Virus record (IMG/VR): IMGVR_UViG_3300014204_000130
Coordinates: 32,001-96,000 of that record
DNA length: 64,000 bases
Source of the DNA: a virus
Taxonomy: Duplodnaviria; Caudoviricetes
Direction: 5' to 3' (one strand)
Positions 15,588 to 61,529 of the stretch are shown here, piece by piece. The notes beneath the pieces are model-generated. The model was not told where the DNA came from. It did no database searches and was given only the letters and a program-made list of their open reading frames with translations. Both the position numbers and the translations under genes were made by a program. Positions within the stretch are counted from its first letter, which is position 1. Every line of letters starts with the position of its first letter.

Positions 15588-16301
15588 GTCCAACGTTGGA
15601 ATTTGAGAGCCGAAGGCTTCCTGTTGAGATGGGGTTGTCTAAGATTGGACAGTTATAAATTCGTTGCTTGTCTAAGATTGGACTCCTGTTGAGATGGGTA
15701 GAGAATTGGGAGGAAAAAGAATGGGTTACGGATGATATGGAAAAGTTGGTTATGCATCCATATACCACATGAAGTACTGCCGTACCCTCCGCATTTTCCG
15801 GAAATGCTCGCATTATTTTATTCCACCGTACAACCCGCATCAACACACGTTCTCCACAGTCGTACATATAGCACCGTACTAGCTGTACCGTACTCTCATA
15901 CCTTGCAAACGCTGATCAATACTCATTTTCCACGAATCAATGATATGCACGCCGAAAGTACAAGTCGATATGGTTGGTGCATTATGCACGGCAATGAAAA
16001 GTGGAAAACTCGTAGGAATGGCTTAAAATGGAAAAAGGTAGAATTGCCTGGGAATGGTCGGAAAAAACTTGTCCAGCAAAAGACTGGGAAAAACTGATAC
16101 TCCTGAGTATCAAAATTTTAAAATGCGGTTTTGTAACCAGTCCGTGAAATATTGCAGTCTTTTAAAAGATTTTTCGGAATGGCCATTCCTATTGTATTGG
16201 CGATTCAAAAATTCTCTCCTCTTCTCCATGGGGAAGTATAGAGTAGGGGGAAGGGTAAGATTCTATATTGAAAAAATAGTTATCGAGAATGAAGAAAACA
16301 T

Positions 16302-16330
16302 TTGACAAGTGCTAGCACTCGGAGTAACGT
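16302..16330 (+). promoter_or_regulatory. sigma70-type promoter heading the ncRNA/early transcript; palindrome AGTGCTAGCACT in the spacer
   Basis: TTGACA-N17-TAACGT. Confidence 0.6.
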
Positions 16331-16396
16331 ATTTCTTGTAAGTGCATTTTAAAACTTACTCCCTTCTTGGAAGGGGATTGCCCAAAAATTTGAAAA

Positions 16397-16848
16397 GTGA
16401 ATCGGCAAGAGTAGACGAAAGGCCAAAAATCTCTCCCCCGCCGGAAACGGCGAAAAACCTAGCTTCAGGGGAGGTAAAGTTTATCAGGATACAACGCCTT
16501 AGCATCCGTCTACTATCCAAAACGTGATTAAAGTGTCACGTGTCGGAACGGCGCAAGGATACGGCGATATCTCGAAAGTCTCCCGAAGTAGAAAATCAGA
16601 GATGAGTAGAATACCGTAAGCGTATTAAATGGCAAGAGGTAAGATACCCGGCCACCCGCAAGGGTAAAAGTGAACCGATATACAAGTGATATCACGGGCA
16701 ATGGTATAACCTACCCTCTCCCCCTACTCTCTCGTGAGAATGTCGGAAGGACGAAAGTATACCAAAGTGAATGCGGATAGCTAGAAAAATGCGTGTTGTA
16801 GTAAGCTTGGTAACTGTTTTTCGTCATGCGATACCCTTACCGATTCAC
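16397..16848 (+). ncRNA. Large ornate structured RNA, ROOL-like (~450 nt)
   Basis: Closing stem GTGAATCGGCAAGAGTA/TACCCTTACCGATTCAC (15/17); AGTAGACG/CGTCTACT stem; GNRA-capped hairpins (CGCCG-GAAA-CGGCG, ACCC-GCAA-GGGT); long-range CTAGCT/AGCTAG and TACAAC/GTTGTA; no credible ORF. GUGAAU..AGAGUAGACGA and CAUCCGUCUAC match recalled ROOL segments. Confidence 0.7.
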
Positions 16849-16857
16849 AACGTTCTT

Positions 16858-17224
16858 TGAAAAGTGCATCGGGAAAACCCCTTTCTACTCAGTAGTAAAA
16901 ATCATTCCCGTTTCAGGGAATGATAAATTAATTTAAAAGGAGTCAATATGAAAAACAATATCATTCTCCCTGAAATTTTCGGCAAGCTTACTTCCGACAA
17001 CGCCGTGGTTCAGAATACCAATGAGGCATACAAGCGCGGTATTGCCATGCAAAAAGCAGTAAAGGAAGCTGAAAAAACGGTAAAGTTGGCTAGCGATTCC
17101 TTTCAAGCCGAACTCATTGCGCGTGCTTCTGACTTACACGTGGTCATTCTGACCATGAAAGCATCTACCATTACCAAGTAAGCACTTGTGACCTGACTTC
17201 CGGTTTTTCCCGATGCACTTTTCA
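16858..17224 (+). repeat. Perfect 20-bp long-range inverted repeat with boxA-like 5' arm, enclosing a 77-aa ORF
   Basis: TGAAAAGTGCATCGGGAAAA (16858-16877) / TTTTCCCGATGCACTTTTCA (17205-17224); GTTCTTTGAAAA at 16852-16863. Confidence 0.9.
16948..17181 (+). CDS. 77-aa hypothetical helical protein
   Basis: AAAGGAG RBS preceded by a hairpin and AAATTAA. Confidence 0.7.
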   Translation: MKNNIILPEIFGKLTSDNAVVQNTNEAYKRGIAMQKAVKEAEKTVKLASDSFQAELIARASDLHVVILTMKASTITK

Positions 17225-17375
17225 TCCCGGCTCATGTTGCTTGTATGCGTTCGGCTTACTGGTTCTTCAGTTTGCGCGTGCTGCATGTTTTCATGAGCCG
17301 GTTGTCCTGTTCTCTTCTGTTTCTCGTATCGGATTTTTTTCCGGACAACATTTTTTCCGAAAGGAGATTGCCAAA

Positions 17376-17774
17376 ATGAATACACTTGTAGAATTGAAAA
17401 AATCAATTCAGGCTTGCAAGGAAGTTATCTCACTTTGCAAGTCGAGTAATGGGGAATATTGTCTCTTGGCAATCTCTCCGAGAAAAACGGGATTTGCCCG
17501 GAGTATGTTTTTCCGGGCGATTCAAAACAATGTCCGTTCCATTCTACCCAAAGGGGTATATGGAACATTCATGGAAGATGGGGAACATGTTACGGTGGAA
17601 GTATCGCCGGAACATGTTCCTTGTCTGGTAGAAAGAATGGAAAAGAAATACATTGTTTCCATTCTGTCTGATTCAAGGATTGACGAGAGACAATCCTTAT
17701 CACCACGTGAAACACAGTGCAAGAAAACAAGACGAGTTACCGCTTGCACTTCCTCTACTCGGACAAATAAGTAG
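17376..17774 (+). CDS. Hypothetical protein
   Basis: AAGGAG RBS before ATG 17376 (MNTLVELKK...). Confidence 0.55.
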   Translation: MNTLVELKKSIQACKEVISLCKSSNGEYCLLAISPRKTGFARSMFFRAIQNNVRSILPKGVYGTFMEDGEHVTVEVSPEHVPCLVERMEKKYIVSILSDSRIDERQSLSPRETQCKKTRRVTACTSSTRTNK

Positions 17775-17831
17775 GGAGAAATTCCCTACCATGTTTTCCC
17801 GGTTTAAAAATTCATTCTCAAAATAGGTTTT

Positions 17832-17927
17832 TGTATCTTTTCCAGATCTTTGGAGGGATACAAAAACCTTGTTGTCGTTCCCGGAATAATCTGTATCTTT
17901 TCCAGATCTTTGGAGGGATACAAAAAC
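17832..17927. repeat. Two identical 36-nt hairpin repeats with a 24-nt spacer (mini-array-like)
   Basis: TGTATCTTTTCCAGATCTTTGGAGGGATACAAAAAC at 17832-17867 and 17892-17927. Confidence 0.9.
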
Positions 17928-18126
17928 ATTGCATTTTGCAATGTCCACCAAAAGATGCACAACGGTTTATCATTTCCGTTGTCATCTTGCATCTTTCTTC
18001 AGTTAAAAATGATAAAGATCATTTGCAGGCCGTTTCAACGACGGTGACTGCAACGGCTTCAATGCCGTGAAATGATATGTATCCGGTTCGTTTCAGAACT
18101 GGAAAATTCGTAAAGGAGGTGTCATC

Positions 18127-19530
18127 ATGACATCTCAAAACAACGTCGCCAACTTAATCGGAAGTCTTCCGGCTTCCGTAAAAAATATTGCGACCGCCGT
18201 TTCGAAAGTCGGCGGTCGATCGTTTCTGATCGGGGGAGCCGTTCGCGACTTCTTCCGGAACGGCTCCGACCCTAAAGATTTCGACCTTGAAATCCATGGG
18301 TTGCAACTGGAAACCCTGAAAGGGGTTCTCGACGGTCTTGGAATGGAAACCAAGACCGTCGGAGAATCCTTCGGGGTTCTCAAGGTTCGCGACGAGGAAG
18401 GGAACGACCTTGACATCTCCCTTCCTCGTCGAGACAACAAATGTGGCGTCGGCCACAAGGGGTTCACCGTCGAAGTGGACCCCAACATGACTATTCGGGA
18501 AGCTTGTTCCCGTAGGGATTTCACCATCAACACAATGATGGTGGATATCCTCACAGGGTCTATCGAAGACCCATTCGGAGGATTGGAAGACCTCCAAAAG
18601 GGAATCCTTCACCATACCTCGGAGCAATTCTCCGAAGACCCATTACGGGTTCTCCGGGGAATGCAATTCCTTTCCCGGATGGGATTCCGGGCTTCCCAGG
18701 AATTGGAGGAAACCTGTTCAAAATTGGTTTCCTCCTTCTCCGAACTTCCCAAGGAAAGAGTTTGGGAAGAGTGGAAGAAGTGGGCTGCAAAAGCCCAATC
18801 TCCTTCGAAGGGATTGGAATTTCTCCGGAATTCCGGATGGGTTTCCAACTTTCCGGAGTTGGAGGCACTCATCGATCTCAAACAAGAACCCTCCCATCAT
18901 CCCGAAGGGGATGTGTGGGAACACACGCTGCATACGGTCGATGCAGCGTGTAAGATTGCCGGGAGGGAAAATCTCCCGAGTGACCGGAAAGTTGCCCTTA
19001 TGTTAGGGGCACTTTGCCACGATTTCGGTAAGGTAACAACCACCGAAGTTATCGATGGGGTTATCACATCCAGGAAACACAACGTAGCCGGGGAAGAACC
19101 AACCCGGTCATTCATGGCGCGGATAGGTGCGCCAAAAGACCTCACCGAAGAGGTCGTCCATCTGGTCCGTGAACATATGATTCACGTCTTCGGTGAACTG
19201 ACGGACAGCGTTGTTAAAAAGCTGTCCTCCCGGATCAACGGGAAAACCACCGTAATAATGGTTTCACATGTGATCGAGGCTGATCACGGTGGCCGACCTC
19301 CATTCGCCGCCGTTCATCCTTGTCCCCAAATCCTGGAAATGGCAGCGAGATTGAATGTTCTCGCCGCACAACCGAAACCTTTCCTGACCGGACGACATCT
19401 CATCTCGCTCGGGTTCAAACCCGGTCAGGAAATGGGAAAGGTTCTCAAGGAGCTTTTCGACCTTCAACTGGAGGGAAAGATTGCCTCGGAGGAGGAGGCA
19501 ATCACATTCGCGAAAACAACTCGGGATTAA
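18127..19530 (+). CDS. cca: Class II tRNA nucleotidyltransferase (CCA-adding enzyme) with HD domain
   Basis: GGAVRD, DFD, RRDFTIN, EDPLRVLR, ERVWEE, HHPEGDVWEHT and CHDFGK motifs. Confidence 0.93.
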   Translation: MTSQNNVANLIGSLPASVKNIATAVSKVGGRSFLIGGAVRDFFRNGSDPKDFDLEIHGLQLETLKGVLDGLGMETKTVGESFGVLKVRDEEGNDLDISLPRRDNKCGVGHKGFTVEVDPNMTIREACSRRDFTINTMMVDILTGSIEDPFGGLEDLQKGILHHTSEQFSEDPLRVLRGMQFLSRMGFRASQELEETCSKLVSSFSELPKERVWEEWKKWAAKAQSPSKGLEFLRNSGWVSNFPELEALIDLKQEPSHHPEGDVWEHTLHTVDAACKIAGRENLPSDRKVALMLGALCHDFGKVTTTEVIDGVITSRKHNVAGEEPTRSFMARIGAPKDLTEEVVHLVREHMIHVFGELTDSVVKKLSSRINGKTTVIMVSHVIEADHGGRPPFAAVHPCPQILEMAARLNVLAAQPKPFLTGRHLISLGFKPGQEMGKVLKELFDLQLEGKIASEEEAITFAKTTRD

Positions 19531-19645
19531 TCCTCTCCCATGCATCCACGATCTTGTGGAAGGAATGCATTCACGTCGAGTCGTGACATGGGAATTGCAA
19601 ATTCTGTCTTTTGTTGGACAGAAAATTAAACGTAGGAGAATCTAT

Positions 19646-19840
19646 ATGGAAAATTTTGACATTCATTTCAACGGTTCTGTTCGGCCTACAATTTCCGACT
19701 TCGAATGGAAGCGGAAAAAACAGGAACGGGAATTCAACTTCAAAACCAAACGGAATGACGACAAGAGGAACAAGCCTCTCCGGAACGTCGGATTCCGTGC
19801 TCTCTTCACGTATGCAACGGAGGAATCCGACAATGAATAA
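19646..19840 (+). CDS. Small basic hypothetical protein
   Basis: Palindrome + AAAATTAAA + AGGAG leader before ATG 19646. Confidence 0.55.
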   Translation: MENFDIHFNGSVRPTISDFEWKRKKQEREFNFKTKRNDDKRNKPLRNVGFRALFTYATEESDNE

Positions 19841-20486
19841 TCATAAAATTCTTCAAAAACTCCATGCGTGTTCGGAAGCCGTAAAATGGGCTTCACAGTT
19901 TCCCACGTTACAAGAGGCATGGAAATCATGTCCTCGCGGGGATTGGATGTTGTGGGTAGCGTCCAAATTAAAAATTGACCAACGAGCACTATTCCTCGCA
20001 AGAGGACAATGTGCAAACACTGTCCGGCATCTCATGAAAGATGCCAGAAATATCGCGGCGGTGGATGCAACCATCGCCTTCGGCAAAGGGGAAATCCCAG
20101 AGATTCCAAAAGATGTCATTGCAGCAGCATATGCTGCTGCTGCTGATGATGCTTCTGCTTATGCTTCTGCTTATGCTTCTGCTGCTGCTTATGCTGCTGC
20201 TGTTGCTGCTGATGATGCTTCTGCTTATGCTTATGCTTCTGCTGCTGCTGATGCTGCTGCTTATGCTGCTGCTTATGCTGCTTCTGCTTATGCTTCTGCT
20301 TATGCTTCTGCTGCTGCTTATGCTGCTGCTGTTGCTGCTGATGATGCTGCTGATGCTGATGCTGCTTATGCTGCTGCTTATGCTGCAAGAAGCGAAAATA
20401 GACAGAAAACCGCAAATATCTGTCGGGAAATTCTAACCGATGAGGTATTCTCAAAGTTGAAAAAATTGGAGGATTCCGACGAATGA
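19833..20486 (+). CDS. Phage protein with Ala-rich (AAAY/ADD) repeat tract
   Basis: LHACSEAVKW...AWKSCPRGDWMLW N-terminus; GGAGG RBS. Confidence 0.75.
   Translation: MNNHKILQKLHACSEAVKWASQFPTLQEAWKSCPRGDWMLWVASKLKIDQRALFLARGQCANTVRHLMKDARNIAAVDATIAFGKGEIPEIPKDVIAAAYAAAADDASAYASAYASAAAYAAAVAADDASAYAYASAAADAAAYAAAYAASAYASAYASAAAYAAAVAADDAADADAAYAAAYAARSENRQKTANICREILTDEVFSKLKKLEDSDE
20121..20388 (+). repeat. GCT-based trinucleotide low-complexity tract with an internal ~69-nt duplication
   Basis: GCT/TAT/TCT/GAT codons; duplicated block at ~20151 and ~20280. Confidence 0.85.
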
Positions 20487-20898
20487 CTAAGGAATACCTC
20501 GGCGATTCGGTCTACATCGAGTTCTGTGACCATGAACAAATGGTCACAATCACGACGGAAAATGGATTGATTTCTCCAAGCAACACCATTTTCATGGACA
20601 TGGAGACGCTTGCAAAGTTGGTTAAATTTGCAATTGATAACAAGTTGGTTTGAGGATTGAACATGCAATTGGAAAAAGAAGTCGATCAAACATTCAAAGT
20701 GGGCGATTACAACCCCACCATGGAACAACGGATTGCACTTCGAAAGAAGTTCGACCAGAACAATTCCGGATTCCATACATTCCACGAATTTGCATCATCT
20801 TCTCAGGTGATGTATGGATCTACTCTGGCTGTAAGATGGGGAAAAATGGTTCTAGTAATTGAACCAGATGGTCACTGTCATTCATAAAATCATTTCAA

Positions 20899-20927
20899 TT
20901 GACAATGGGACTTGCATAGTTTAATAT
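20899..20927 (+). promoter_or_regulatory. sigma70-type promoter
   Basis: TTGACA-N17-TAATAT. Confidence 0.7.
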
Positions 20928-21279
20928 CTGATGTCCTGTTGCAATAAAATCAAATCAAAGGAGTTATGTATGATTATCAAACTCTGGGCGGTTAATCCGC
21001 CAATTTCTGAAAAGAAAGAGCGTTCTCTCATGATGAAATGTATTCGGGAGAAGAAAATCCCGACCAATCCACATCCCACAAAGAAACGTTCTCTGGGATA
21101 TGGAGATTTAACGATTAACCTCGACAAAAACACAATGAAACTCAACCATCTCGGGATTGTGGATGGATTTGTTCTACAATATTCCCGGAAGGTTGGGGAA
21201 TTCATCGCCGCTTAAATTTCTGAAACTCTGTCCAGAAATGGACAAAAATTAATGCCGAAAGGCAGAAAGGTTACACAAT

Positions 21280-21885
21280 ATGACTACTCCAGTTGCTAAG
21301 AAGACCATTGGATCTAAGGTTGCTGCTCCCGCCAAGACCGTTGTTGCTCCAGTTGCAATGGCATCTGCTACTAAGCAATGCCCTCCGAATCCTCCACTTA
21401 ACGCAACCCCGGTGAAGCCCGTTCTTCAAGCGGCAACCGTTCTTTCCTCCGTTCTTGAAAAGAAGCGCGGTGGTGGGTTGACCAAGGAAGCCAAAGCCAA
21501 GAAGGAAGCCGAAAAGACGGCCAAGCTCAAGATCATTCGGGGAAAACTGGTCGCCTCACTCCTTGCCGATTCCACTCTTCTGGCTGACCCGTCGGAAATG
21601 GCAGCCGCAATGATCTCACTAGAGGATAAGGTTGTCCTCCAATACGACCTCGAAAACCCTTCCGGTCGTGTCAAATCCGACGGCCATGATGGACGCGGCT
21701 ATACCCCACAAGAAGTGGCTCAGGTTGCCGTCTTTTCTTGGACGCAGAAGTATGGTAAGAACATGACAGAGGAACAGGTAATGGATGCTTGGAAATTCGC
21801 CATGTGTAACCCGAAGGCTCCTCGTGCAAAGACCAAGAGCGTGAAGCCTACGACTCCCCCGGCGATTGCTGAAATTCCAGAATAA
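21280..21885 (+). CDS. Basic Ala/Lys/Pro-rich hypothetical protein
   Basis: PVAKK...AAPAK N-terminus and AKAKKEAEK; preceded by the palindrome leader. Confidence 0.65.
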   Translation: MTTPVAKKTIGSKVAAPAKTVVAPVAMASATKQCPPNPPLNATPVKPVLQAATVLSSVLEKKRGGGLTKEAKAKKEAEKTAKLKIIRGKLVASLLADSTLLADPSEMAAAMISLEDKVVLQYDLENPSGRVKSDGHDGRGYTPQEVAQVAVFSWTQKYGKNMTEEQVMDAWKFAMCNPKAPRAKTKSVKPTTPPAIAEIPE

Positions 21886-22899
21886 ATATTCAATTTGGTT
21901 TCACACGGGCATTGTGCTTACATAGACAATGCCCGTTCTTTTACAACGGAGAAATATTATGTATATTGGAATGCATCCAGATAGTGAGCAGTTTATCAGA
22001 TTGCAAAACAAGAACAGATTTAATATTGAAAAACTTCAAGAGGTTGATCTTGAAGAACTTGGACATGTTAAAGTCCAGATACTTTTGGACATCGTAGAGG
22101 ATGAATATGAATGTCCGAAGTGCGAACGGCATGACAAAGATCTTGAGAATTGGAAGGAACAGATTCACGAGATGATTTCAGAGATGTATGCCCTCGTGAA
22201 CTCTGTCCGGGAAAACATGACAGATGATATTACTCCCGAAGAACGCAAAAAGTATTTCGAAGAACATTGCAAGAAATTACAAAAAGCATACTCCGATTGC
22301 ACATTCATCGGAGACGATTTCAATTTCGCAGAATAATCTGTCCAATATTGGACAGAAATTAAATACAGGAGCATTCATTATGCGACAAGCACAATTCGAT
22401 TCAACCGACTTCGACCTTCTTTCAGAACTCGTGAAGCCTCAACACTTCACGAACATCCCACCAATCATCCTTCACCGGTGGGTTGTGTGTTCTCAGTGTA
22501 AGCGAGACATCGACCGTTCCAAGGATACGGTCATCGTAACTGGTGGCAAAACTATCTGCCACAATTGCTATTTGTAAAAAAGGAATTGAATATGAAACCT
22601 CAAACAATCATTCTTCCAATCTTCGAGATAGTCGTTGAAATATTTCCCGGAGGATGTGCAACCATCACTTCCAATTTGAAGAAGGGATATGGTTCAAAGT
22701 CGAACTACGATCCTCCAATCAATGTTGCAATTGATGTAGTTGAAAGTTTGATTCTTGCCCATGCATGTGCTGGAATTGATATCACAGATCGAAGGTATCA
22801 AGAAGGAATCAAAACAACGGTTGAGAAGATTGTAAACGTTTATTCTTAAACAACTTCGTCTTTTTAATAGACGAAAATTAAACCATAGGAGATTTCCAA

Positions 22900-24039
22900 A
22901 TGAGCATTCAACAAAAGTTTTCTGACAATGTGAAACAACATCGCGGTATTCTCAAACATCTTCTCATCGAACGGGAAGAGATCATAGACGCATTACATAT
23001 CGCACTTCTTTCCCGAAAGAACGTATATCTCATCGGTCCCGGTGGTGAAGGCAAAACAAAAATTGCAAAAGACTTTTCCAAGTTGTGTTCCATGAAATTC
23101 TTTGATCAGCAATTCCATTCATTCACGAAGGTGGACGATTGGGAAGGAATCGTTGATCTTAATGAATTCAAACAAGGAAGACTCATTCGTAAAGTTGCCA
23201 ATTTCGCTCCCGGTGCGGATATCCTTCTTGCCGATGAAATTGGACGTGGTGGAGCTGTCCTATCTTGCATGTATCGATTGCTTAATGAAGGCACTTACAT
23301 GGAAGATGGAGTAATGAAACAAGCTCCAGTTGAATTGGTATTCGCCGGTTCCAATTCCATGTTACCGACTGAGCATGATGCACTGTTCGATAGGTTTCCA
23401 TTCTTCTTCGAATGCAAAAAGGTTTCCAATGAAAACTTATTGGAAATCTTGATGGATGATGATAAAGAAGTCATCCTTCCAGAGAATGAAAAGATTACAA
23501 AGGTAATGGTGCATGAAGCACGATTGGAAATGTTGAAGGTAAAACTTTCAAAAGACATTGCAATGATGATTGTGGATATCAATGCAAAATTGGAAGAAGA
23601 AGGTATCCACATCTCCACTCGACTCAATCGTTGGAGTCGAACCATCCTCCAGTCTTCTGCATATTGCGAAGGAAGACAAGAAGTAATCGATGAAGATGTA
23701 TGGGTTCTTCGCAACGTATACGCCAGAACACTCAAACAGAAACCCATTGTCGCAAAGATATTGAGATCGATATGCAATCAGGAACTCGACTTGATGTTGC
23801 TCACCTTCGACCAGTTGGATGCGTATTTCAACAAATGGGAACAGAATGCATGTCCTAGAATGTTGGATGGTGGTGATTGCGCAGAGAGCGCGAAGGAATT
23901 GCTGAAGGCGATTGAATCGGTAAAGCCGAAGGATATCAACAAGGCAGAACATTCAAGGCTTGTCCTGCAAGGGAAGGCCAAGGTTGCCGCGATCTCCGCA
24001 TCGGCATTGGCGAAACGTCGGCAGGGCGTGAAGGAATAG
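22900..24039 (+). CDS. MoxR/RavA-family AAA+ ATPase
   Basis: GPGGEGKT Walker A, LLADEIGR Walker B, AGSN sensor, ALFDRF. Confidence 0.88.
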   Translation: MSIQQKFSDNVKQHRGILKHLLIEREEIIDALHIALLSRKNVYLIGPGGEGKTKIAKDFSKLCSMKFFDQQFHSFTKVDDWEGIVDLNEFKQGRLIRKVANFAPGADILLADEIGRGGAVLSCMYRLLNEGTYMEDGVMKQAPVELVFAGSNSMLPTEHDALFDRFPFFFECKKVSNENLLEILMDDDKEVILPENEKITKVMVHEARLEMLKVKLSKDIAMMIVDINAKLEEEGIHISTRLNRWSRTILQSSAYCEGRQEVIDEDVWVLRNVYARTLKQKPIVAKILRSICNQELDLMLLTFDQLDAYFNKWEQNACPRMLDGGDCAESAKELLKAIESVKPKDINKAEHSRLVLQGKAKVAAISASALAKRRQGVKE

Positions 24040-24137
24040 CCACTCGCGCCGCCAGACAAAGGGGAACACACATCGGGAACCCGGCGTCCAATATTGGACG
24101 CCAAATTAACATCCCTTAAATGGGAAGGAGTATTACC

Positions 24138-25082
24138 ATGAAGAAACTCAATCCAGTTGAACGGCCTAACCGAACCGTATTCTCTGCAACCAACAAGGCC
24201 GGGAAGTCCTTTGATATCATCGCATATCAAATCGTATTCGGGTTCTCAATCAAGTCGCTCGACATGCAAGTCCTTCACGATGAATGGACGCGGCTTGGAT
24301 TTGATCCCAAATATATGGGAAAAGTTACGAAGGATGGTGTAATCAAACGCGCCATTGCCGAAACTGTACAGGATCTCCGGAATTCCAATTACACATACAA
24401 AAAGATTGGAGATGAGAATTCCGATGTTGTTGTCTACAAAATCTTCAAGATGGAGTGTGAATCCATCAATGGAAAACTTGATGGTGAGATGAAACCATAT
24501 GCTCACATCACATATCGAAAACAATCGGAGATGATTGAAATCGATAATCCAGAAATCGAATCCATGTTGAATACACATTACAAATTCTTCACCTTGAACT
24601 ACATGAATCTCGATTACACACGTTATACCAAGACCATGATTGAACGGGAATCTGTATGTCTTTCACTTCGGCCTCAAGGTGGCGTCTACATTGTCCCGGC
24701 GAAGGACAAAGACATGGTTTACAAACTCAAAGAATTGTTCAATCGGGTTGATCCTGATGGTGACTTTCATATCACCGAAATTCCAGATCTCGATGGTGCC
24801 AAGGAGTCCATTGCATCGGCATATCAACCGGTGATGCAAGACATGTGTGCAAAACTGGAAGAGAAGATCACGGAATTGGAATCCAAGGGAAAGCAACTTT
24901 CGTCCAAGAAGCGGCAAGAGTTGTTCGACGAGGTTTGTTTCCTTGGAAAAGATATCGAACTCATGATGGACGTGTCCGAATACGATTTATCCAGCGGTAA
25001 GGATATGTTGATCAAGGTGAACGAACATATCATGAACTTTACTCCAATTGCAAAGGATGAAACTGAAAACAAGGAGGACTAA
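24138..25082 (+). CDS. Hypothetical protein between AAA and vWA genes (DUF6744-like)
   Basis: LRPQGGVYIVP motif; position in the trio. Confidence 0.5.
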   Translation: MKKLNPVERPNRTVFSATNKAGKSFDIIAYQIVFGFSIKSLDMQVLHDEWTRLGFDPKYMGKVTKDGVIKRAIAETVQDLRNSNYTYKKIGDENSDVVVYKIFKMECESINGKLDGEMKPYAHITYRKQSEMIEIDNPEIESMLNTHYKFFTLNYMNLDYTRYTKTMIERESVCLSLRPQGGVYIVPAKDKDMVYKLKELFNRVDPDGDFHITEIPDLDGAKESIASAYQPVMQDMCAKLEEKITELESKGKQLSSKKRQELFDEVCFLGKDIELMMDVSEYDLSSGKDMLIKVNEHIMNFTPIAKDETENKED

Positions 25083-25083
25083 C

Positions 25084-26328
25084 ATGTCCATCGTCGAAAA
25101 GAATCCATACGCTGACTTTAAGTATGGGCAGTGTGTCCGTAATGATCGTCCATTCCAAGACAAGATCATGTGGGAGGAGAAATATGATAAAGGTTTCTCC
25201 GAAGACTGCAATGATCTGTTCCAAAGTTTGTATCAGAAAGACGTGAAATTTAATGGAGAAGGAAGAATTAAAACTCTTCTGGATTCCATTAAAGACAGCA
25301 ACGACTTCAAGCAATTGAAGGAACGCACAAAAGGGAATCATGTCCTTGCATATATCGCCATGAAGGACATGATTCCCCAACTGCAACAGATTGCAAAGGA
25401 ACTTCCGAAGGACAACAAACCGCAAGACCAAAAGTCCAAGGATCGTATCCGACAGGGTATGCGGCTTGCAGTTCAAGAAGCCGCAGATACCGTAGAGGAA
25501 GCCGAGGGTATGATCGATGTTCTCGGTATCGGTAAAGAGGGTGGAATTACTACCGATGAAGACGTTGGATCTGCAATTGAATCAGCCAATCGTTTCGCCA
25601 ACGATGAAGTGTTCAAAAGAATCATGGAAATGGCGGGACGGTTCGAACGTCAGGCAGATAGCCAGATTAAAACCAATTGCAGTCACGGACTGGACGAATT
25701 GGTAGGAATCGATAGTTCAGACGACATCGCAAATGTTCTCCCGGAAGAATTGGCCGATGACGATCTATTCAATTTGAACTTTGTCGAATCCAAGTTGCAA
25801 GTGAATAAGTTCCGGGGTAAAGAACCCAAAGAGAAAGGAGCCAAGATTGTTTGTATTGATCGATCCGGAAGTATGGATGGATGGAGATATGAATTCTCCA
25901 GTGCAATCTTGTTTGCAATGTATCTGGTTGCCAAACAAGATGAACTTCCAATGTTCGTGAATCTCTTCGATGTAAATGTTATCTCTCGTGAAATCAAATC
26001 CACGAAGGATATCATGTGGATCATGGGGAAATATATGGGTGGTGGAACCGACTTCAATCTTCCACTCACCCGGTCATTCGAACAAATAGAATCCAATCCC
26101 GAATTCGAGAAAGCCGATATCGTATTCATCACAGATGGATTCGATACACTTTCCGAAGATGTTATGAACAAAATTCAATCAACGAAGAAACGAATTTCAT
26201 TGAAGATCATTTCATTGTTGATTGGACGTGGAAGCACAGAAACATTGAAAGGATTCTCCGACAAAGTATTCCAATGTTGGAACGAAGCAAGCAGTAAAGA
26301 ATTTTGCGAGGAGGTATTCACGGTATGA
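25084..26328 (+). CDS. ViaA-like vWA-domain protein
   Basis: CIDRSGSM, GGGTDF and VFITDG MIDAS elements. Confidence 0.88.
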   Translation: MSIVEKNPYADFKYGQCVRNDRPFQDKIMWEEKYDKGFSEDCNDLFQSLYQKDVKFNGEGRIKTLLDSIKDSNDFKQLKERTKGNHVLAYIAMKDMIPQLQQIAKELPKDNKPQDQKSKDRIRQGMRLAVQEAADTVEEAEGMIDVLGIGKEGGITTDEDVGSAIESANRFANDEVFKRIMEMAGRFERQADSQIKTNCSHGLDELVGIDSSDDIANVLPEELADDDLFNLNFVESKLQVNKFRGKEPKEKGAKIVCIDRSGSMDGWRYEFSSAILFAMYLVAKQDELPMFVNLFDVNVISREIKSTKDIMWIMGKYMGGGTDFNLPLTRSFEQIESNPEFEKADIVFITDGFDTLSEDVMNKIQSTKKRISLKIISLLIGRGSTETLKGFSDKVFQCWNEASSKEFCEEVFTV

Positions 26329-48161: not shown

Positions 48162-48538
48162 CGTTATTTCCTCGTAGAATTTCTTGATTCGAATCTGAGC
48201 CTTATTGCTTCAAACAAATCACTATCAATGGTTTCATCAAGTAAAATAATCCCATTGATATTTAATCCAAGCATATCTTGTACTTTTGATACTTCACAAT
48301 ATGTGAAGTATGATGAATCAAGCGATTTCAAAAATTCCAAATATTTCACATGATCTTTGGTTACTACACAGATACTTTTGGTATTCATTGTTAGACTCCT
48401 AATTGATTGTTTGAAGTAAGAAGATATGAACTGTTTCTTGATTACGAAAGTTTGACTTCCAACCACCAATTGAACATTAAGTTAGTGAAGCAAAAAGCCC
48501 TCGTGGTGGGATAGACATCCATTCATATCTTCCAACAT

Positions 48539-48632
48539 TGGGAAGAGTGGGATTAGAACCCACGGGAATCCTTCTTTAAGGACTCTACGACACGTTACAA
48601 CGTCGTGCAATAAACCACTCTGCCATCTTCCC
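48539..48632 (-). tRNA. Class II tRNA-like element (GTA/Tyr-like, distorted anticodon arm, no CCA)
   Basis: GGGAAGA/TCTTCCC, GCA-GAGTGGTTTAT-TGC, long variable arm, GTGGG-TTCTAAT-CCCAC; promoter TTGACA-N18-TAACAT at 48771-48742. Confidence 0.65.
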
Positions 48633-48773
48633 ATGAGAGGTGTTGGTGTCCGATAAACAAACTCCACCGTTTATAAGACACCAACACCATAGACGTATAT
48701 CCGGCCTAGATTTTCCAATCAGATATACGCCCGCGAACTCTATGTTAAAACATCAACAATGAAAATGTCAATG

Positions 48774-59991: not shown

Positions 59992-60960
59992 TTATTTTCC
60001 ATACTCCAAGTTGATTACTTTGAATGAAAGACGTTCACCCATGATAGTTTCTTCTTCGATAGGCCGAAACACTAATCCTTCCCGTGGTTTATCGTTTGGA
60101 TAATTCCCCTTCGCCATATCCTGTAACCATTTGTTGGATACATCTTCAGGAAATGTTCCAACAAGATCAACAACCACCATTGGAAGTTGATTTAATCTGC
60201 AAAACTCCGTCAATTCCAGATAGCCGCAGTATTTGTGCTCTTCAATACTGTAAAGATTGAATACTCGCAAATCTTTCTCAGGGAGTCCCATCGGATTACC
60301 CTGAATACTTGGTCCAACCATTTCAAATTGAATAGCATATCCTTCAGGAAGCTTGTTAACAAGATCATACTTTCTTGCAAGACACCAAATCAAATTATGT
60401 GGGGTGTCTTTCATTGAAAGATTTCTTGAACAACAAAACATTTCCCCTTTGTATTTTCCAATGGTTCCTGAACTCCCATCGGCCTTCACAGATGCATAGT
60501 ACGATTTACCTTTCAATGCATCTACAAGATGAGAAGCCGTTTGGAAGTTTGGTTCGTCTGTCTTTGGCATGAAACCGGGGAAGTTACCAAGTGCATCGCC
60601 AGCAATACTTGGATCAATTGGTTTCTCATACTTGATGACTTTCATTGCATCACCAATATCATCACCAATTGTCATATCACAACCAACATTCGGCATGATG
60701 AGAACTTCCGACGCAACACCTTTGAACTTGCACATGGTTACACGGAACTTTCGTTTCCTCATGAATTCAAACCGTTCAAGTTCTGGAACAATTGCATCTG
60801 GAAGATATACTTCAACATAGTCACCAATTTGCATTTCTTTGCTGACAACACCATGCCATTTCCCACCCTGACCGCAAACTACTTCAGCTTGAACGATCTT
60901 GTCTGCATCTTTAATAGGATTGATGTTGATGATCTTACCGATGAATGCTAAACCTTTCAT
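59992..60960 (-). CDS. ATP-dependent RNA ligase (Rnl2/DRB0094-like)
   Basis: N-terminal PI..ADKI OB-like module; PKTDE, KADGSS, CSRN, REGLVFR, SFKVIN. Confidence 0.88.
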   Translation of the reverse strand: MKGLAFIGKIININPIKDADKIVQAEVVCGQGGKWHGVVSKEMQIGDYVEVYLPDAIVPELERFEFMRKRKFRVTMCKFKGVASEVLIMPNVGCDMTIGDDIGDAMKVIKYEKPIDPSIAGDALGNFPGFMPKTDEPNFQTASHLVDALKGKSYYASVKADGSSGTIGKYKGEMFCCSRNLSMKDTPHNLIWCLARKYDLVNKLPEGYAIQFEMVGPSIQGNPMGLPEKDLRVFNLYSIEEHKYCGYLELTEFCRLNQLPMVVVDLVGTFPEDVSNKWLQDMAKGNYPNDKPREGLVFRPIEEETIMGERLSFKVINLEYGK

Positions 60961-61529
60961 GATTCTTCTTCCTCTTTCTTTTTTGGATATAGCCAATCGA
61001 ATCGCCAAATCTGTTCACATTTCATTTCAAATGCAATCTTTGCACAAACTACTTCATATTTCACACGATAATAATTCTTGCAAAGCCATTCAGTTACTTC
61101 TTGATTTGCTTTATTTTTAAACTTTGGATAATTACATGAGAAGATCATCATAAGAACATACAAACTATTCTTCGTATCTTTCAAGTAATTGTATAATAAT
61201 TCTCGATCATTGCATGAGAAAACATATTTTACAAGTTCAAATGGATTGACATCTTTCTGTGTATCTTCCGATAGTTTTGTAATTTTGTATTTCTTTGTCG
61301 ATGCGCGTTTACCTTTCAAAAGTTTGTAATCGTGAATTACAATTGTAAGATTAACTCCACTTTCAATAAGAAGATCAATGTCTTTCTTCTTCAAATTCAA
61401 TTCATCGGAATATGCAACAAGGTTTTTGTCTTTGGTCATGAAGTTCTTATTGATACTTGCGGAGGTTATCTCAGAGATTACGAAATCGTTCTTCTCAAGT
61501 TCATATTCTCCGTAAATGAAATGGATCAT
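60957..61529 (-). CDS. Possible clamp-loader accessory subunit
   Basis: IHFIYGE.E...NPFELV pattern; near the RFC gene; weak evidence. Confidence 0.35.
   Translation of the reverse strand: MIHFIYGEYELEKNDFVISEITSASINKNFMTKDKNLVAYSDELNLKKKDIDLLIESGVNLTIVIHDYKLLKGKRASTKKYKITKLSEDTQKDVNPFELVKYVFSCNDRELLYNYLKDTKNSLYVLMMIFSCNYPKFKNKANQEVTEWLCKNYYRVKYEVVCAKIAFEMKCEQIWRFDWLYPKKKEEEES

Follow-up and report, generated by a model that had tools for sequence, protein, structure and literature searches.

To our knowledge, boxA, the Nus factors and leader-trailer helices are regarded as devices of ribosomal RNA, with exceptions in the nut sites of lambda and in a small number of autoregulated genes. In rrn operons, boxA marks the outer foot of a long-range helix by which a complete functional RNA is looped out, and in a proposed model the antitermination complex retains the leader strand until the trailer has emerged (PMC10250234). 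The NusB-NusE complex has a site for double-stranded RNA that is contiguous with its boxA site (PMC3177189). A boxA in an mRNA leader can also control translation, including that of lambda N (PMC5725501). In the lambda nutL/N leader a host-type boxA, accompanied by boxB, lies upstream of a small early gene; between this boxA and the ribosome-binding site (RBS) the RNA forms a double-stranded structure that RNase III could cut, and such a cut would uncouple the gene from Nus-mediated effects (summarised in PMC5725501). [quoted passage not shown]

The locus described here lies in a window of 64,000 nt (bases 32001-96000) of a 108,145-bp IMG/VR virus record with an estimated completeness of 88%; positions are those of the window unless the genome is named. 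The source is a large, uncultivated phage of the lytic type, which encodes a family B DNA polymerase, a DnaB-like helicase, a UvsX-like recombinase, DNA and RNA ligases, HNH endonucleases, MoxR/VWA proteins and a CCA-adding enzyme. The DNA polymerase is only ~25% identical to T4-type polymerases and has no near relative in IMG/VR; judged by sequence comparison, the phage is without a close relative, cultured or uncultured. Strong AGGAG-type RBSs together with a G+C content of ~37% suggest a Firmicutes-like host. The region 16000-26000 has a G+C content of 42-50%, compared with 32-38% in the rest of the window and 37% in the whole genome, and holds a large non-coding RNA candidate, a small ORF of 77 codons (ORF77), ORF132, the CCA-adding enzyme and the MoxR/VWA genes. 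This island is probably an acquired module, and HNH endonuclease genes are found near the ORF77 region. We also noticed that the CCA-adding enzyme and an Rnl2-type RNA ligase together resemble a tRNA repair kit, and that ARAGORN reports a 96-nt tRNA-like gene (48538-48633, minus strand) with the four-base anticodon gtaa, to which no amino acid could be assigned.

ORF77 is bracketed by an inverted repeat whose arms are 23 nt long, 96% complementary and 321 nt apart according to the repeat finder (Table 1). The exact core comprises 20 bp (16858-16877 with 17205-17224, 327 nt between) and is the sole exact inverted repeat of at least 16 nt with a spacing of 50-1500 nt in the 108,145-bp record, where 0.1 such 16-mers per genome are expected from first-order Markov shuffles. 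Both arms lie in non-coding DNA, off the path of the ribosome, and the helix formed by them encloses the leader, the RBS and the entire ORF; from 5′ to 3′ the loop contains a small hairpin, a 9-bp hairpin, an A/T tract, AAAGGAG and ORF77. When 16230-17420 was folded as one RNA, the pairing probability of positions 16859-16873 was 0.997-1.0, and in this model the helix dominates the RNA ensemble. The fold of the 401-nt unit has a z-score of −5.9. Among 175 scored phage ORFs, ORF77 has the longest continuous flank-to-flank complement (20, with 14 and 11 for the next two, which are gapped noise). Apparent brackets around other genes of the phage likewise resolved into gapped noise or into paired copies of a recurrent intergenic palindrome. 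The perfect 20-bp repeats around the RBS and the whole 77-aa ORF, as described in the initial annotation, are borne out by both the repeat finder and folding. Further downstream, between ORF132 and the CCA gene, there are two 40-nt direct repeats (17832-17931; 98% identical, 60 nt apart), each of which forms a hairpin with a 13-bp stem.

Table 1. Features of the ORF77 locus and related genes, in window coordinates.
Feature	Position	Strand	Remarks
Alternative outer arm of upstream RNA	16240-16265	+	pairs with 16705-16730; −33.8 kcal/mol
Unit 1, 5′ arm	16397-16413	+	preceded by a TTTGAAAAGTG word also found at unit 2
Unit 1, 3′ arm	16832-16848	+	15/17 paired, two C·A mismatches; −19.5 kcal/mol; ends 3 nt before boxA
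boxA-type word GTTCTTTGAAAA	16852-16863	+	12/12 consensus; its final 6 bases also open the helix 5′ arm
Helix 5′ arm (unit 2)	16858-16880	+	20 bp exact, one-base bulge, 2 bp; duplex −36.1 kcal/mol
9-bp leader hairpin	16901-16924	+	followed by AAATTAA and AAAGGAG (16936-16942)
ORF77, small helical protein	16948-17181	+	codon usage; one full-length homologue
Helix 3′ arm (unit 2)	17202-17224	+	begins 21 nt past the ORF77 stop codon
Long hairpin	17228-17300	+	directly past the 3′ arm, ahead of ORF132 (folding)
ORF132	17376-17774		
Terminator-like hairpin	17771-17789		downstream of the ORF77 unit
CCA-adding enzyme	18127-19530	+	PolyA_pol head and HD domains
Rnl2-type RNA ligase	59992-61008	−	PF09414 and OB domain

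The boxA-type word is sense-oriented and lies in non-coding RNA, where the helix has its outer foot; an exact copy occurs once in the window, with 0.05 copies expected. To check the boxA consensus, a 14-mer containing GTTCTTTGAAAA was scanned in reference genomes, one per species, which gave 122 matches. Nineteen of these sit 46-218 nt ahead of the 16S start, and others are in the 16S-23S spacer before 23S. These sites come from Bacillus, Neobacillus, Paenibacillus, Mycoplasmopsis (both positions in one operon) and Veillonella, as well as some Proteobacteria, Nitrospira and Acidobacteriota. From these positions, GTTCTTTGAAAA is a genuine and widespread rrn boxA, as the initial annotation had it, and is not confined to Firmicutes. 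A second exact copy is present at genome positions 18452-18463 on the minus strand, outside the window; it falls within an ORF of 179 aa in the structural region and has no helix near it. The word alone is therefore not diagnostic, and the weight rests on the combination of boxA and helix.

Directly upstream of boxA is a candidate large structured non-coding RNA of ~450-600 nt, extending from 16240 or 16397 to 16848 (fold z = −3.5), which we call unit 1, the ORF77 unit being unit 2. Two competing helices can close it, 16397-16413 with 16832-16848 and 16240-16265 with 16705-16730. The former is found in the minimum-energy fold of an RNA starting at 16300 and is absent for a start at 16230; in these models, which helix closes the upstream RNA depends on the transcript start. 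The 5′ arms of the two units share a 17-mer, each pairs with its own 3′ arm, and the extensions differ. Where the shared core differs by A/C, the respective 3′ arms differ by T/G to match; this is the sole compensated difference, and it comes from two units of one phage. Separate 3′ arms and the compensated difference fit two separate RNA helices better than a single protein-binding site present four times. Unit 1 does not retain the first four positions of boxA, which leaves a single boxA, 3 nt past unit 1 and opening unit 2. Searches of IMG/VR with the shared 17-mer gave chance matches only. No Rfam family was found in the whole window at the gathering threshold, nor with Rfam 15 at E ≤ 10 in 15800-18200, where only chance snoRNA-type matches appeared. 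A search of the upstream RNA with ROOL (RF03087) at E ≤ 10 also gave no match, a weak test in that the controls went undetected as well.

Codon usage marks ORF77 as a coding sequence, with a score of 0.325 (long ORFs average 0.221) and negative values in the remaining five frames. The sole homologue, P0004, is a distant one; it is encoded on a 962-nt Logan contig and is a full-length match (77 aa, 40% identity, E = 3e-5); two other candidates, P0002 and P0003, were discarded as low-complexity matches. No relatives of ORF77, ORF132 or the ORF77/P0004 alignment were found in IMG/VR, JGI metagenomes or GTDB genomes. The flanks of 100 homologues of the CCA enzyme (≤51% identity) contain no DNA or protein similarity to the ORF77 region, and a GenBank phage search with 16100-18100 gave no match. 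The protein is mildly basic and helical. An AlphaFold model of P0004, the first row of the alignment, has three helices at low confidence (pLDDT 59), the ESM Atlas returns only generic helical look-alikes, and no Pfam or PHROG family matches ORF77. These properties lend no support to the earlier suggestion that it is a partner of the adjacent large RNA.

The layout of A/T tract, RBS and ATG in front of ORF77 (at 16925) is repeated before five other genes of the plus-strand block, at 19623, 22356, 22875, 28810 and 29239. The order is stereotyped, namely a palindrome or hairpin, AAATTAA or ATATTAA, AGGAG and ATG; the palindrome is GTCCAA..TTGGAC-like at most genes and a different hairpin at ORF77. 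Since the leader layout is common to its neighbours, ORF77 appears to be expressed as they are. This stereotyped leader might serve the phage as promoter, as operator or as a signal for RNA processing.

Comparison with rRNA operons was made on four rrn loci of the Bacillaceae and Mycoplasmopsis type from reference genomes (L134, L204, L206 and L226). In all of them the boxA word itself makes up the 5′ strand at the outer end of the leader-trailer helix around 16S (−36 to −52 kcal/mol). As boxA pairs with the 16S trailer in these loci, helix formation would sequester it, and its position at the outer foot means that the phage geometry copies a real Firmicutes-type arrangement. The phage locus also resembles the rrn spacer in that a structured RNA (16S there, unit 1 here) ends just upstream of boxA. 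Unlike in rrn operons, the phage helix encloses a 77-aa mRNA with its own RBS instead of an rRNA (no Rfam match; coding ORF), only the 3′ half of boxA is paired, and the helix is 22 bp rather than 25-44 bp, perfect and phage-encoded. With lambda nutL the locus has in common a host-type boxA upstream of a small gene and, between boxA and the RBS, a duplex that RNase III could cut. It differs from lambda in the Firmicutes rrn form of its boxA, in that no boxB or N-like protein was found at the locus, and in that the double-stranded element is a gene-spanning helix, not a local leader structure. The hbs mRNA is, like ORF77, a small Firmicute-type message with long-range pairing of its untranslated ends (14 vs 20-22 bp); unlike ORF77 it is cellular and without boxA, and its pairing modulates RNase Y and creates no RNase III substrate (PMC5737220).

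Recurrence of this arrangement was examined by searching IMG/VR with the canonical boxA 14-mer, which gave 114 sites. An exact complement of at least 13 nt to the 50 nt at boxA, located 60-2500 nt downstream, was present at 4 of the 114 sites, compared with 6 of 1199 random positions and none of 112 antisense sites. Five phage contigs (L349, L363, L327, L291 and L272) have boxA followed within 6-13 nt by a helix of ~16 bp, which begins 12-13 nt after the first boxA base, with one ORF inside (100, 107, 271, 172 and 289 aa, respectively); the cargo of L291 is a GNAT acetyltransferase. Compensatory changes between these loci occur at several positions. The varied cargo indicates that the boxA-helix architecture recurs with different genes. 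Like these cassettes, the ORF77 locus has boxA first, a helix arm within ~15 nt, and a single ORF inside, here together with its RBS. The arms and cargo of ORF77 are unrelated to theirs in sequence; they carry a longer canonical rrn spacer word, whereas the ORF77 helix starts inside boxA and stands behind a large non-coding RNA. The rrn loci and the phage contigs together uphold the initial view that a geometry which encloses rRNA is here used for an mRNA. We found no paper describing a boxA-helix layout around protein genes.

Our preferred reading is that the repeat acts in RNA and not in DNA, as an rrn-like module of Nus loading, helix closure and RNase III cutting; from the combined analysis we give this an even chance (probability of roughly 0.5). 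What the sequences show is the helix with its boxA word, how the two are arranged, that the ORF is coding, and that rrn operons and other phage contigs share this geometry. A plus-strand transcript would present, in order, the structured non-coding RNA, the boxA word and the 22-bp helix flanking the ORF77 message. This would amount to the layout of a Firmicutes-type rrn spacer (16S trailer, boxA, 23S leader-trailer helix) in which the rRNA has been replaced by an mRNA. Host NusB/NusE would bind the emerging boxA while it is still single-stranded and would modify RNA polymerase, which may then read through later hairpins while the 5′ arm is kept near the exit channel. Once the 3′ arm is transcribed, the helix would close, with the 3′ half of boxA becoming part of it. 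Being perfect over 20 bp, the duplex is a plausible substrate of RNase III. The host enzyme would cut it and part the ORF77 mRNA from the upstream RNA, boxA and the downstream genes, and the product would be a ~350-nt mRNA with its ends still paired, which we propose makes it resistant to exonucleases. Its circularisation, also suggested in the initial annotation, is unsupported: the Rnl2-type RNA ligase is encoded 43 kb away, and nothing ties the ligase to the ORF77 RNA.

Several observations count against the rrn-like module. No RNase III gene was found in the phage, which makes the module dependent on the host enzyme. There is only one boxA, placed after the large RNA rather than before it, and the second exact boxA word lies inside a gene. 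If the leader inside the loop is a phage promoter, as it might be, some ORF77 transcripts would lack the 5′ arm. A more far-reaching version, in which the large RNA and the small mRNA stand in for 16S and 23S in a pseudo-rRNA operon and are folded, excised and co-produced by boxA/Nus and RNase III, possibly as an RNA-protein pair, seems doubtful to us.

The main rival at the level of RNA is an end clamp without cleavage, which we consider a lesser possibility. Pairing of the UTRs, as in B. subtilis hbs mRNA, would protect the ORF77 message against RNase Y, RNase J1 and 3′ exonucleases, or would set the timing of its translation, and boxA would be incidental or a mere transcription signal. The same helix evidence serves this explanation equally, and the 14-bp pairing of the hbs UTRs is a precedent for it (PMC5737220). 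However, a perfect duplex of at least 20 bp is unlikely to escape RNase III where the host has the enzyme, and in a polycistronic transcript the helix would not be at the true RNA ends unless the RNA were cut there.

The remaining explanations place the repeat in DNA. It is rather improbable that the arms are the boundaries of a small mobile or recombining gene cassette and RNA pairing a by-product, either as MITE-like ends or through repeat-mediated shuffling of the kind seen in T4-type promoter-stem-loop cassettes. The high G+C content of the 16-26 kb region, the HNH endonuclease genes nearby and the varying cargo of the boxA cassettes elsewhere would agree with such an origin; yet the flanks differ and show no target-site duplication, the genome has no second copy, and neither a transposase nor a recombinase to move the cassette was found in the 108-kb record. 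Moreover, boxA sits at the foot of the helix exactly as in rrn operons, and the compensatory changes in the other phages preserve pairing; both count against a DNA boundary. Inversion of the ORF77 segment, by which a recombinase would flip 367 bp and switch the gene on or off, is unlikely, and we regard such a switch as quite improbable overall. Its arms of 20-23 bp and spacer of 321 bp do fit known invertons, but serine (PF00239) and tyrosine (PF00589) recombinases are absent from the 108-kb record (88% complete), the segment has no internal sigma-70-like promoter, and a similar 5′ arm at 16389, in direct orientation and with its own partner, is not expected of an inverton; this alternative, raised in the initial annotation, is weakened accordingly. 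A recent neutral inverted duplication or template switch without function is very improbable. The locus is a singleton and the perfect identity of its arms could mean a recent origin, but such repeats are expected far less than once per genome, the arms fall exactly in the untranslated flanks with boxA at the foot, and a parallel unit exists upstream.

The locus adds a case of a Firmicutes-type boxA directly behind a large unclassified phage RNA. If phages routinely frame protein genes in this way, they would have a portable route to defined, end-protected monocistronic mRNAs from long early transcripts. Such genes would also constitute a novel target class for the Nus factors and RNase III of the host, and the arrangement would offer a compact design for synthetic operons.
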